Sequence record: PP925821.1
Reading direction: 5' to 3' (one strand)
Length of the DNA stretch: 45,057 nucleotides
From: Escherichia phage Eeyore
Under the pieces are notes generated by a model. It was given only the letters and a program-made list of their open reading frames with translations. It was not told where the DNA came from and searched no databases. Below are positions 6,803 through 9,638 of this stretch, one piece after another; the stretch's first letter is position 1, and each line of letters opens with the position of its first letter. The position numbers and the translations under genes were made by a program.

Positions 6803-7026
6803 CCTCCACCCCTGCGCTGTCTCTGCATTATTTCTAAATATTCCTGGCAACTGGCGCACGTTTTGCAGCCAGGCATTGCAACCCGGCGCGCCTCAGGAAT
6901 GTCCTCTCCGCATTCAGAACAGTGCTCTGCAGAGACTGCATTCTGATCAATACGGTGTTTTTGTATGGCCAACTGCAGGCGGTGCTCTAACAGCTCGTTT
7001 GCCTGATCGATGATGTCTGAACTCAT
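6799..7026 (-). CDS. TraR/DksA-family C4 zinc-finger protein
   Basis: 75 aa with CSECGEDIPEARRVAMPGCKTCASC (CxxC-N17-CxxC). Confidence 0.7.
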   Translation of the reverse strand: MSSDIIDQANELLEHRLQLAIQKHRIDQNAVSAEHCSECGEDIPEARRVAMPGCKTCASCQEYLEIMQRQRRGGG

Positions 7027-7526
7027 ACGGCACGCTCCTGGCGAAGTAACGCATCGTGCAGCGCCATAGCACCCGCTTCACGGAGTGCAGCATCTTCATA
7101 ACTGATGCCGTTCGAATCCATGATGCAATCCCTATCGAGGCACTCCGAACAATCGTTGAGGGCAGATTTGATAGCGTGGGCACGCACTTCATCCAGTACA
7201 GCGACGGTAGCATTGCCTGAATGGTCTGGGTCGGTGAACTCGATAAGGACTTCATTTCCTCTCTGAAGAAGTTCTTCATCAGATGCATAGGGGAGTTCAT
7301 CAGCAGTATTAAGGTGCCCATGATTATACCCAGCTGAATAAACCTGCCCGGCAGCCCATCGCACCGCCTGAACTTCCGCAGCCAGCGCAGCTACCTGCTT
7401 CTCAGCGTTTGACAGTTGAAGGAGGAGTTCTTCAACTAACGTCACACGCATCACTACTTTCTGGCATTCGTTGCGTTTAGCTCTGGCGATTGTGCCGCGC
7501 AGAGTCGCGTATTTGTTGGTGATCAT
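7023..7526 (-). CDS. Hypothetical early protein
   Basis: 167-aa ORF in the leftward operon with 4-nt overlaps to neighbours. Confidence 0.5.
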   Translation of the reverse strand: MITNKYATLRGTIARAKRNECQKVVMRVTLVEELLLQLSNAEKQVAALAAEVQAVRWAAGQVYSAGYNHGHLNTADELPYASDEELLQRGNEVLIEFTDPDHSGNATVAVLDEVRAHAIKSALNDCSECLDRDCIMDSNGISYEDAALREAGAMALHDALLRQERAV

Positions 7527-7720
7527 TGGACGGACTCCTGACGAAGATGGTTAATTTCGGCGTCAAGGCTCATTCTCTGGTCCATCGATTCCGTCAAGGC
7601 GGCAAATGTAACGTCCAGGCGAGTGGCTACCTCACGCATCAGAGAGGCTTCTGCTGGTGGCAGTTTCCCCGCCGCAGCATGGGCTGCGGCTACCAGTTCT
7701 TTTATCTTCATGCGAGGCAT
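7523..7720 (-). CDS. Hypothetical small early protein
   Basis: 65-aa ORF, coupled to flanking genes. Confidence 0.4.
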   Translation of the reverse strand: MPRMKIKELVAAAHAAAGKLPPAEASLMREVATRLDVTFAALTESMDQRMSLDAEINHLRQESVQ

Positions 7721-8247
7721 GTGCGTGATTCCATAAGCTCATTGAAACGGTTAATGAATAAGCCATATGCCTGGCCTGGGCGAAGAGGCACGATCTGGAT
7801 AATGTCGCTGGCCGGAATACCTTCGAGGCAAGGCCAGAGTGAACCGTCTTCGATATCCAGATCGCGGCGTTCAGTGGCTAGCATCACCAGATCGGCATAT
7901 TTCACTACCGCTGACATATCAGGGGTGATGCTGAATTTGGCCCGGATCAGTTGTTCTACCTGCTCTTCAATGCGACGGTAATCTGGAAGCAATGCTTTCA
8001 GGGGGGCAGGGATGTCCTGGCAATACGCTTCTGCTGCGTCATGCATCAGGGCTTCAAAGGCGAACTCTGGCGGAACGAGCTGGCTGCACAGCACAGAGTG
8101 CTGGGCCACGCTGTAAAATTCCGGCAGATGACCAGTGAAGCGGCAGATGTGGGAAAGCGCGGTCGCGATATCCTCGATCTCCACATCGTCAGCAGTTGAA
8201 TTGAGGTAATCGAATTTCTTTCCTGAAAGTGTCTGGATATAACTCAT
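7708..8247 (-). CDS. HD-domain phosphohydrolase (YfdR-like 5'-deoxynucleotidase)
   Basis: 179 aa; HD signature H-x30-HSVLCS...EALMHDAAEAYCQDIP; size and motifs as recalled for E. coli CPS-53 YfdR. Confidence 0.65.
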   Translation of the reverse strand: MSYIQTLSGKKFDYLNSTADDVEIEDIATALSHICRFTGHLPEFYSVAQHSVLCSQLVPPEFAFEALMHDAAEAYCQDIPAPLKALLPDYRRIEEQVEQLIRAKFSITPDMSAVVKYADLVMLATERRDLDIEDGSLWPCLEGIPASDIIQIVPLRPGQAYGLFINRFNELMESRTCLA

Positions 8248-8382
8248 CGTCTTTTCTTCTCCATATTTGGCAGCTGCACCTGCGCCAGTTTTTGGTTGTA
8301 CGAATCCCTCGCCATTGGCGATTAATAAAGGGAATTACGCTTCAATAAATCCCCGCGGCGCCGGGGATTTAATGCAGAGAAA

Positions 8383-9213
8383 TTACGCTTTAAAGTTACC
8401 GATAAAGGTTTCAACCGGCTTGTCGGTGAACTTCTCGATCAGCAGTTCACGGAACTCGTTGGCGATAGCTTCTTCCTGGGCTTCCAGTTGAACGATGCGG
8501 AGTACAAACACAGGCTCCCCGCTTTTAAGCAGGCTGTTGCGCAGGCTAAAGCGGCGTTCGCCCAGGCCTTCATATGGGACGCATTTGAACTCAAAGGCCA
8601 CCGGCATGACGTCTTTACTGCTGGCTTCAACGCTCTGCATCAGGGACTTTCTGCCACCAAAATCTTCGTCTTCATGAGCTGCTTCCGAGACTTGTTTGAT
8701 ATTGACGCGACGAACGGCACCAGCTGCCTGCGCGATGGACAACACTTTCCCTTCGGCATCAAATGCGGTCAGGAAGTCGGCCCAGTCCTCCAGCCATTCA
8801 GCAATTTCTTTCTGGCCCAGACGATCACCGTTCACCTGAAGCAGGGCTCGGAATGGTGCTGTCTTTTTGAGGGTGATTGAAGCGACGTTATCAGCATGGC
8901 CAGGGTTAGCCAGCGTACCGATGTTGAAGACAGACCGTGCGGTCATGTTTTCAGCATCGATAAAGCAGCGCGCTGGTTCAGCTTCGTTGGCGTAGCCTAC
9001 GGCGTAACGCACAAAATCAGGAATACTGGTTGTGGTCATGGCGCCACGGAAGCGAAAACGCTCCAGTCCGAAACGCTCGAGGCTTTCTACGTTAACACCT
9101 TGAGGAAGCAGGGCAGTCGGGCATGCCGTAACTTTTGCTGCTTCCAGGTGGTAACCGGAAAGAACCAGGTCTTTCACCTGCTGCAGGGCATTGCCGTCTA
9201 AAATCTGGGACAT
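8383..9213 (-). CDS. YfdQ-like (DUF2303-type) conserved prophage protein
   Basis: 276 aa, SD AAGGA; length and position upstream of the HD gene match the yfdQ-yfdR arrangement. Assignment by recollection only. Confidence 0.5.
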   Translation of the reverse strand: MSQILDGNALQQVKDLVLSGYHLEAAKVTACPTALLPQGVNVESLERFGLERFRFRGAMTTTSIPDFVRYAVGYANEAEPARCFIDAENMTARSVFNIGTLANPGHADNVASITLKKTAPFRALLQVNGDRLGQKEIAEWLEDWADFLTAFDAEGKVLSIAQAAGAVRRVNIKQVSEAAHEDEDFGGRKSLMQSVEASSKDVMPVAFEFKCVPYEGLGERRFSLRNSLLKSGEPVFVLRIVQLEAQEEAIANEFRELLIEKFTDKPVETFIGNFKA

Positions 9214-9266
9214 AAAATTTCCTTAATATGTGGTCAAAGGGATGTCAGTGATTTGTCTGCTGCGGA

Positions 9267-9638
9267 TCACTGTGCCGCTTTAAGCTTTCCGTCAACGCCG
9301 CCGTTGATCCCGAACAGCTGCCCCTGATCTTCCTGCAGGATGGTCAGCTTGCCGCCTTTGTTAACCCACATTGGTGTTTCGGTGGTGTCTTCTTCGGAGG
9401 CTTTACCGCGCGGGGTTGGAGTGACGTAGTTCAGCTTGTGCTTGATCTTGACGCGCTTCTCTTCGACGGAATTACCCATACGCTCAATATCAAAAGTGAG
9501 GACTACTTTGCCTTTGGTACCGTTGTTCAGAACGCCAAGCGCGGTAGTGTTTAAAGCTGCCGCGATCTTGTTCATGAACACGCCGGCATCCAGTTCGCCC
9601 AGGAAATCGGGCACTACGGTCATGCGGTCATTACTCAT
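9267..9638 (-). CDS. Hypothetical early protein
   Basis: 123-aa ORF with SD GAGGG 8 nt upstream of ATG 9638. Confidence 0.5.
   Translation of the reverse strand: MSNDRMTVVPDFLGELDAGVFMNKIAAALNTTALGVLNNGTKGKVVLTFDIERMGNSVEEKRVKIKHKLNYVTPTPRGKASEEDTTETPMWVNKGGKLTILQEDQGQLFGINGGVDGKLKAAQ

Follow-up and report, generated by a model that had tools for sequence, protein, structure and literature searches.

The 45,057-nt genome of Escherichia phage Eeyore (PP925821.1), hereafter the window, carries an early-left (pL) operon on the minus strand, transcribed from the cI side toward int, which harbors homologs of yfdP, yfdQ and yfdR from the CPS-53 (KpLE1) prophage of Escherichia coli K-12. We consider it very likely that this operon is of the type found in phages LLS and ST64B, that its yfdP-yfdQ-yfdR cassette is orthologous to that of CPS-53, and that the phage, having no recombination (Rec) module of its own, recombines via the host RecBCD enzyme and Chi sites. 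An earlier note, made from the sequence alone, had likened the cluster at 7023-9638 to CPS-53, placed it there instead of a recombination module, and suggested that it might take over host replication. The cassette and the two small open reading frames (ORFs) behind it are arranged as follows.

9267-9638, minus strand: yfdP-like gene, 123 a.a., the first gene of the cassette
8383-9213, minus strand: yfdQ-like gene, 276 a.a.
8347-8370, minus strand: 9-bp GC-rich hairpin without a U tract, read from the sequence, in the 135 nt that separate yfdQ from the HD gene
7708-8247, minus strand: yfdR-like gene for an HD-domain phosphohydrolase, 179 a.a., directly downstream of yfdQ
7523-7720, minus strand: small ORF, 65 a.a.
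7023-7526, minus strand: coiled-coil-like ORF, 167 a.a.

The BLASTP comparison with K-12 YfdP/Q/R/S/T that the earlier note had proposed was run against proteins translated from the CPS-53 region of MG1655, and it succeeded for P, Q and R. The YfdP-like protein showed 61.5% identity to K-12 YfdP (E = 5e-50), the YfdQ-like protein 55.6% identity to YfdQ over 277 a.a. (E = 8e-109), and the HD protein 66.1% identity to YfdR over 177 a.a. (E = 6e-93). The order and strand of the three genes are the same as in CPS-53, and each K-12 protein belongs to the same PHROG as its window counterpart, for example phrog_204 for YfdP (E = 1e-41 for the window protein) and phrog_318, labeled ‘deoxyribonucleoside 5' monophosphate phosphatase’, for YfdR (E = 1.5e-96 for the HD protein). 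The YfdQ-like protein also matched PF10065 (DUF2303) at E = 1.4e-60. The metal-binding H...HD...D motif of the HD protein, composed of H50, H69-D70 and D119, is conserved with K-12 YfdR and with Atu1052 (PDB 2gz4), which itself matches the HD protein at E = 5e-14. K-12 YfdR is annotated in RefSeq as a 5'-deoxynucleotidase, and by this annotation enzymes of the YfdR family hydrolyze deoxynucleoside monophosphates (dNMPs). By analogy with this 66%-identical homolog, the window protein would be a metal-dependent HD phosphohydrolase acting on dNMPs, and may also bind domain I of DnaA. The components that the earlier note had named here, an HD-domain YfdR-like phosphohydrolase, a ~276-a.a. YfdQ-like protein and several small unknowns, are all present, at levels far beyond chance.

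The likeness to CPS-53 extends to the divergent arm, where the Dam methylase fusion of the window shares 79% identity with K-12 YfdM at its N-terminus. The two elements differ in their state, CPS-53 being a degraded remnant and the window an entire phage genome, and in that CPS-53 has YfdS (DUF551) and YfdT, neither of which was found in the window by BLASTP or tblastn; a Pfam match to DUF551 was likewise absent. The 167-a.a. ORF was considered as a YfdS equivalent and rejected, as its match to phrog_614 is weak (E = 7e-5) and the profile region barely overlaps the part matching the YfdS N-terminus. This ORF also matches phrog_492 weakly (E = 7e-8). The 65-a.a. ORF belongs to phrog_12248 (E = 5.6e-28) and overlaps the stop of the HD gene by 13 nt. 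The hairpin at 8347-8370 was not among the calls of the terminator scan.

The closest described system is Escherichia phage LLS, and the earlier note overlooked that the absence of a Rec module has already been accounted for in print. Zheng, Casjens, Davidson, Amundsen & Smith (Genome Res 2025; PMC12315714) isolated LLS, whose growth is enhanced by RecBCD and which encodes none of the known recombination proteins; phages of the LLS type use Chi and host RecBCD instead. They identified LLS gp37, gp38 and gp39 as homologs of yfdR (printed ‘yfbR’), yfdQ and yfdP, respectively, and found the LLS early-left operon to be most closely related to those of ST64B and phiNP. In our comparison, 73% of the window aligned to the LLS genome, with the packaging and head-tail genes at 97.7% identity, and the region 5400-9700 was 94.3% identical to LLS and 95.4% identical to Escherichia phage Flotzy. 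The operon follows the order of LLS gp34-gp39 (yfdP, yfdQ, the HD/yfdR gene, the 65-a.a. ORF and, later, a DnaQ-like exonuclease, xis and int). Its products are 99.2% (YfdP, gp39), 96.0% (YfdQ, gp38), 96.1% (the HD protein, gp37) and 100% (the 65-a.a. ORF, gp36) identical to their LLS counterparts. Neither phage has a Rec module, both have the same cohesive-end site (cos), and in both the replication module comprises only O, followed by a Dam-type methylase. Salmonella ST64B (sb35-sb37) and Citrobacter phiNP have the same yfdR-yfdQ-yfdP block, at ~77-78% DNA identity over 43-49% of 5400-9700, but they are more distant from the window than LLS and their flanking genes differ.

We confirmed that the phage lacks a recombination module. 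When its early, immunity and accessory genes were scanned with Pfam and PHROGs, no Red-beta/RecT, Erf, Sak, Sak4, SSB (single-stranded DNA-binding protein), lambda-Exo/YqaJ, RecE, Gam or Abc2 was detected. The profile scans extended to sequence without an LLS alignment but did not go through the late genes singly; most of the late genes align to LLS, and the non-matching ORFs that were checked are lysis proteins or unknowns. By tblastn, 14 reference Rec proteins likewise had no match anywhere in the window (lambda exo, bet, gam and ea10; P22 erf, arf, abc1, abc2 and ninB; HK620 sak4, ssb, abc2 and hkaM; Rac recT and recE). The sole nuclease in the operon is of the DEDD 3'-5' type (PF16473). 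The earlier note had recognized no Erf, Bet, RecT or SSB, and the profile search that it put forward as a challenge to its own claim likewise returned no recombinase. The operon resembles lambda Red (exo-bet-gam) and P22 erf-abc in its mid-pL position between the immunity region and int and in its early timing, but no component of either module has a sequence or profile counterpart in the window.

A second difference from the phages with Red/Erf modules, which are mostly free of Chi, lies in the Chi sites themselves, whose orientation is best read relative to cos.

22895-22906, plus strand: cos cohesive-end sequence GGGCGGCGCGCT, identical to the annotated LLS cos and occurring once
5477-42569: 23 Chi octamers GCTGGTGG, 19 on the plus strand and 4 on the minus strand

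The expected number of Chi sites was 1.72 ± 1.45, and among 100 dinucleotide-preserving shuffles the maximum was 6, with none at 23. Chi is the commonest octamer of the window, followed by TGCTGGTG, and the same holds for LLS. When the map is linearized at cos, which delimits the packaged genome on the left and on the right, 9 of the 19 plus-strand sites fall in the right-most 25%, with an enrichment in the ~11 kb before cos. These 19 sites are collinear with the LLS top strand, that is, in the orientation active in LLS and lambda. LLS shows the same strand bias (20 + 3 sites in our count) and the same clustering before cos, in line with the published figures of 23 Chi, with 20 of them oriented for activity and half of them within the right-most 22% of the genome (PMC12315714). 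The examples of the ‘LLS functional type’ given by Zheng et al. have 12 or more Chi sites (PMC12315714), and the window matches this type in its lambdoid architecture, its lack of Rec genes and its many oriented Chi. The need for recombination-dependent concatemer formation would most likely be met through the host: RecBCD would enter at the right cos end, meet the dense, correctly oriented Chi sites and load RecA.

The genes are ordered int-xis, early-left operon, cI/cro/cII, O, Q, lysis, cos, terminase, head, tail and tail fibers. Since a tRNA 3' fragment and int directly follow the tail-fiber genes, the Fin-type invertase and the DinI-like gene, the window represents the circular or virion form; it is a circular permutation of a complete temperate lambdoid phage genome and not an integrated prophage.

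We next consider how the cassette is distributed. Two scans of IMG/VR provided 80 loci with a YfdQ 76-97% identical to that of the window (window clade) and 80 with a YfdQ 99-100% identical to that of K-12 (K-12 clade), and locus features were scored within ±10 kb of yfdQ, with the following outcome.

YfdP next to YfdQ: 80/80 in the window clade, 80/80 in the K-12 clade
YfdR present: 78/80 in the window clade, 78/80 in the K-12 clade
YfdS: 1/80 in the window clade, 47/80 in the K-12 clade
YfdT: 1/80 in the window clade, 34/80 in the K-12 clade
Match to a reference Rec protein: 0/80 in the window clade, 0/80 in the K-12 clade
Match to lambda P or a DnaB-type helicase: 0/80 in the window clade, 0/80 in the K-12 clade

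YfdS or YfdT was thus found at a single window-clade locus, while the DEDD exonuclease lies in the same operon at 53 of the 80. Beyond these clades, tblastn detected YfdQ in 180 phage records, from Escherichia, Vibrio, Xanthomonas, Pseudomonas, Salmonella, Shigella and other phages, and a YfdP homolog was immediately upstream of YfdQ in all seven distant phages examined (profile E = 6e-16 to 2e-52). The genes for YfdP and YfdQ are obligately paired and form the conserved core of the cassette, to which YfdR is an add-on in lambdoid lineages and in at least one Pseudomonas phage, LPPA56, where a gene for a YfdR-like HD protein with 44% identity is located two genes downstream.

In these distant phages, the pair is often found among genes of DNA recombination. 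In ArgO145, it directly follows genes for a Gam-like protein, a RecT-like protein, an exonuclease 87% identical to lambda Exo, and SSB; this phage has no YfdR, and its replication module consists of a helicase and a primase. Xanthomonas phage CP2 has annotated Erf-like, exonuclease, endonuclease and SSB genes 2-4 kb downstream of the pair, and Vibrio phage 1.232.O has an annotated Rad52/59/22 gene 2.6 kb from it. In Vibrio phage 24E30.2, the DEDD exonuclease, YfdP, YfdQ and SSB follow one another in that order, which recurs in VvAW1 with two genes between the exonuclease and YfdP and one between YfdQ and SSB. In Burkholderia phage JC1, RecT, YqaJ and a DUF2303 protein belong to one module. As the pair stands amid bona fide single-strand annealing protein (SSAP), exonuclease and SSB genes elsewhere, the cassette is not a replacement for a Rec module. 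Accordingly, the proposal that it stands in the window ‘instead of’ one holds only in that a lambda-type module is absent, since yfdP-yfdQ coexists with full Rec modules in other phages. The genomic neighborhood of the pair rather points to a possible role for YfdP-YfdQ in DNA transactions. Zheng et al. had likewise noted that yfdPQR is common in lambdoid early-left operons and is neither restricted to nor universal among Rec-less phages, and that ArgO145, with both the cluster and a full Rec module, makes yfdPQR unlikely to be hidden recombination proteins (PMC12315714).

Might the cassette instead serve the takeover of host replication? According to this alternative, YfdQ and YfdR, produced early, would bind domain I of DnaA, block its contacts with DiaA and DnaB, halt initiation at oriC, and thereby free host replication proteins. 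We judge this to be unlikely for the window, although of the alternatives it survives best. The report on yfdQ-yfdR-yfdS-yfdT to which the earlier note alluded is real: Noguchi & Katayama (2016; PMC4776307) showed that extra copies of the yfd cluster inhibit initiation, with multicopy yfdQRS or yfdQRT acting both in vivo and in vitro, and that K-12 YfdR, the protein to which the window HD protein is 66% identical, binds DnaA. They also suggested a lambda-P-like role for the ancestral phage, and hence the DnaA idea is already present in the discussion of that paper. However, the minimum inhibitory set consisted of yfdQ and yfdR plus one of the genes yfdS and yfdT, while a plasmid with yfdQR was inactive and yfdP was dispensable; the window has neither YfdS nor YfdT. 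Moreover, the effect depended on a multicopy supply, deletion of the chromosomal cluster had no initiation phenotype, and the authors themselves cautioned that the overexpression effect could be an artifact (PMC4776307).

The replication genes of the window bear on the same question. The O-like initiator (12299-13153, plus strand) is directly followed by a 444-a.a. fusion (13150-14484, plus strand) whose N-terminus is a phage Dam methylase, and no P, DnaC or DnaB-type gene is present. Phages with O only, as LLS is reported to be (PMC12315714), must obtain DnaB by another route, and Zheng et al. flagged helicase loading in such phages as a puzzle for LLS (PMC12315714). By inhibiting the contact of DnaA with DnaB, a protein could plausibly make DnaB available to an origin without a P-type loader, and, as circumstantial evidence, YfdR is present in the window and in 156 of the 160 yfdQ loci, with no lambda-P or DnaB-type gene within 10 kb in any of them. 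Common descent accounts for this correlation just as well. In addition, YfdP-YfdQ occurs without YfdR in ArgO145 and in Vibrio and Xanthomonas phages, indicating that the conserved core of the cassette is not tied to DnaA. Taken together, host-replication takeover by the window cassette is possible but unsupported.

Another alternative is that the phage is not truly Rec-minus, and that YfdP-YfdQ, possibly with the DEDD exonuclease, forms a hidden module that anneals or protects DNA ends. The structural data are relevant here. The window YfdQ matches PDB entry 9o7m (‘YfdQ Protein’, 274 a.a.; E = 3e-39), which contains 36 chains of one sequence that is nearly identical to ORF37 of Xanthomonas phage CP2; our literature search found no paper describing this entry. 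Because neither the window YfdP nor CP2 ORF36, the product of the gene downstream of CP2 yfdQ, has a match in the PDB, nothing indicates that 9o7m represents a complex of YfdP with YfdQ. The example protein chain of the entry is C, so A and B may be chains of another kind. An AlphaFold2 model of the window YfdQ, with a predicted local distance difference test (pLDDT) score of 72.9 and a predicted template modeling (pTM) score of 0.63, has a confidently predicted alpha/beta core (~56-170 and ~200-276), an N-terminal helix and two putatively disordered loops. Foldseek with this model gave no match in the PDB at E ≤ 0.001, a search of BFVD returned only other DUF2303 or uncharacterized phage proteins, and no recombinase, Rad52-like, OB or RecA-like fold was found. 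A third search for YfdQ homologs, with a three-sequence profile, produced just three matches at 53-57% identity and added little diversity. The AlphaFold2 model of YfdP, made from a shallow alignment, reached a pLDDT of 45.5, too low for a fold search. In the preferred reading, too, YfdQ, together with YfdP, would be a large homo-oligomeric, probably DNA-associated protein in early DNA metabolism.

Several observations are consistent with a hidden module. The pair lies among exonuclease, SSB and SSAP genes in five to six of the seven distant phages, the order DEDD exonuclease-YfdP-YfdQ-SSB recurs in the Vibrio phages, the exonuclease is kept in the operon in most window-clade loci (53/80), and YfdQ, with its 36 chains in 9o7m, forms a large oligomer as many annealases do. 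The DUF2303 protein of JC1, gp10, was detected in CsCl-purified virions, and the authors of that study suggested that it may travel with the DNA and protect its ends like T4 gp2. On the other hand, the coexistence with complete Rec modules in ArgO145, CP2 and JC1 argues against a redundant SSAP, as Zheng et al. also concluded (PMC12315714); the polarity of the DEDD exonuclease is wrong for a partner of the Red type; and the RecBCD dependence of LLS and the accumulated Chi sites are unexpected for a phage with an efficient system of its own. A hidden module of this kind therefore appears decidedly unlikely. As a specific candidate, YfdQ as an SSAP, SSB or Gam analog was rejected, given that it coexists with those genes in ArgO145, CP2, 1.232.O and JC1 and that its model has no similarity to such folds.

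Downstream of the 167-a.a. ORF, the operon continues to int, and cI lies at its other end, as listed below.

10360-11055, minus strand: CI-type repressor with HTH_3 and Peptidase_S24 domains, the right boundary of the early-left operon
10323-10341: terminator-like hairpin after cI
6799-7026, minus strand: TraR/DksA-family C4 zinc finger, 75 a.a.
6050-6802, minus strand: DpdA-like (tRNA-guanine transglycosylase-like) gene, ~250 a.a. from an ATG overlapping the TraR stop
5465-6037, minus strand: DEDD (DnaQ-like) 3'-5' exonuclease, 190 a.a.
5211-5435, minus strand: putative excisionase, 74 a.a., inside a 97-a.a. ORF at 5211-5504 and adjoining int
4021-5214, minus strand: tyrosine integrase

The earlier note had placed a DEDD exonuclease and a TraR/DksA zinc finger after the cassette. 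Both exist, but they lie outside the interval 7023-9638 that it gave, in the order TraR, DpdA-like gene, exonuclease, and the DpdA-like gene between them was overlooked. The TraR/DksA protein matched PF01258 (E = 7.8e-12), phrog_54 (E = 1.3e-25) and TIGR02419 (77.2 bits versus a cut-off of 59.7). The exonuclease matched PF16473 (Rv2179c-like; E = 6.5e-73) and phrog_255 (E = 1.3e-89), and it is 96.3% identical to LLS gp34. The 167-a.a. ORF has ATGA overlaps at both ends. As ATGA start/stop or 13-nt overlaps join all frames from the 65-a.a. ORF through the DpdA-like gene, this block is one translationally coupled unit.

The block is also where the window departs from LLS within the operon. LLS has only gp35 where the window has the 167-a.a. 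ORF, the TraR/DksA gene and the DpdA-like gene; gp35 is matched only by the last ~50 a.a. of the 167-a.a. ORF, which is 95% identical to Flotzy CDS0047. The DpdA-like ORF falls in phrog_887 (‘queuine tRNA-ribosyltransferase’; E = 3.3e-94), with the alignment starting at residue 19 of the 269-a.a. ORF, and by tblastn the gene shows 36% and 34% identity to regions of Pantoea phage MED16 and Salmonella phage 7-11, respectively, both known DpdA phages. It matched nothing in Pfam (TGT, tRNA-guanine transglycosylase), NCBIfam, PADLOC (DpdA) or the PDB. In the scans of the window genes, no FolE, QueD, QueE or QueC family of the preQ0 pathway turned up, and the gene would therefore fit the ‘DpdA-only’ group of Hutinet et al. 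(2019), whose members rely on preQ0 from the host. Neither LLS nor Flotzy has the gene, and of the 80 related IMG/VR loci only 2 do.

The genome encodes three DNA methyltransferases, all on the plus strand: the Dam-type N6A enzyme (13150-14484), a C5-cytosine enzyme of 663 a.a. (14423-16414) and one of the N6/N4 type (20317-21369). Counting DpdA as well, a temperate phage of 45 kb would seldom devote so many genes to DNA modification. Anti-defense genes are common in the early-left operons of lambdoid phages, which is counted in favor of a third alternative. This alternative, in which the HD phosphohydrolase and its partner proteins would help DpdA and the three methyltransferases to escape host immunity, for instance through the breakdown of nucleotide signals or a shift in dNMP pools, draws on the DpdA-type gene in the same operon, the methyltransferases and the dNMP hydrolysis annotated for the YfdR family, but we regard it as the least probable of all, since no PADLOC model matched YfdP, YfdQ or YfdR, no similarity to known anti-defense proteins was seen, the rarity of DpdA in related loci indicates an independent insertion rather than a part of the cassette, and no experimental hint ties the three proteins to immunity.

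The preferred reading, an LLS-type operon whose phage recombines via host RecBCD and Chi, also has points that weigh against it. RecBCD-enhanced growth was shown experimentally for LLS only (PMC12315714) and is carried over from there to the window phage. YfdP and YfdQ may hold an unrecognized recombination activity beyond the reach of homology and fold searches, given that the YfdQ model is of moderate quality and that of YfdP failed. As for YfdR, the putative dNMPase activity and DnaA binding are extrapolated from the K-12 protein, the HD protein scored 22.2 bits against the Pfam YfbR-like family (PF12917), below the gathering cut-off of 25.9, and K-12 YfdR has nucleotide affinities far below YfbR's (PMC4776307, citing Zimmerman et al. 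2008). Finally, the 160 loci represent two related lambdoid clades, so part of their tight linkage reflects common descent.

A broader and speculative view, to which we assign a very low probability, would unite several of these strands. YfdP-YfdQ, from the Xanthomonas, Pseudomonas and Vibrio phages to the enterobacterial lambdoids, would be an obligately paired, high-order oligomeric, DNA-associated system acting on phage ends or single-stranded DNA, for example by gating RecBCD for productive recombination at Chi, and YfdR, having joined it in the lambdoids, would divert DnaB via DnaA domain I to the O-only origin.

The remaining features concern the two flanks of the operon. The ~720-nt leader between cI and yfdP is largely non-coding and contains a terminator-like hairpin at 9807-9827 (minus strand). 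No N homolog was seen in the window, and antitermination of the put-RNA type was suggested for LLS by Zheng et al. (PMC12315714). At the other flank, the integrase belongs to phrog_1 (E = 2.8e-31) and has lambda Arm DNA-binding and Phage_integrase domains. The putative excisionase, which has no family match in the Pfam and PHROGs scans, is 100% identical to Flotzy CDS0041 over 74 a.a. A tRNA 3' fragment at 3838-3885, beside int, marks the phage attachment site (attP), and we take this fragment to resemble tRNA-Pro. A 65-nt query around it (3836-3900) was matched at 90-95% identity or better in every complete E. coli genome. ARAGORN found no complete tRNA in the whole window, and an Rfam scan at gathering thresholds was likewise empty. 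Next to attP are a DinI-like gene (2811-3293, minus strand), of the kind whose product binds RecA filaments, and a UmuD-like gene (phrog_3469; 3413-3733, plus strand), which are noteworthy in a phage apparently dependent on host RecBCD and RecA. Beyond them, an invertible tail-fiber segment (1-2768) comprises two opposed genes for tail-fiber C-termini with endosialidase-chaperone (Peptidase_S74) domains and an adjoining serine invertase (2214-2768), an arrangement similar to that in LLS.

Much of this picture has a precedent. The arrangement of the operon, the missing Rec module, the compensation by Chi and the argument that yfdPQR are not recombinases have already been published for LLS (PMC12315714). 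The window differs from LLS by the block of the 167-a.a. ORF, TraR and lone DpdA-type gene, by its integrase and attP (ssrA in LLS, the tRNA fragment here), and by its CI/Cro immunity region. It independently reproduces the LLS signature of no Rec genes, 23 oriented Chi, the same cos and an O-only replication module. It thus adds one more genome to the class described in 2025, that is, lambdoid phages that gave up their Rec module and became rich in Chi to use host RecBCD. The residual interest lies in the role of the very widespread YfdP-YfdQ pair, whose function, once known, would annotate a common early gene pair of phages and clarify the DnaA phenotype of the K-12 prophage.

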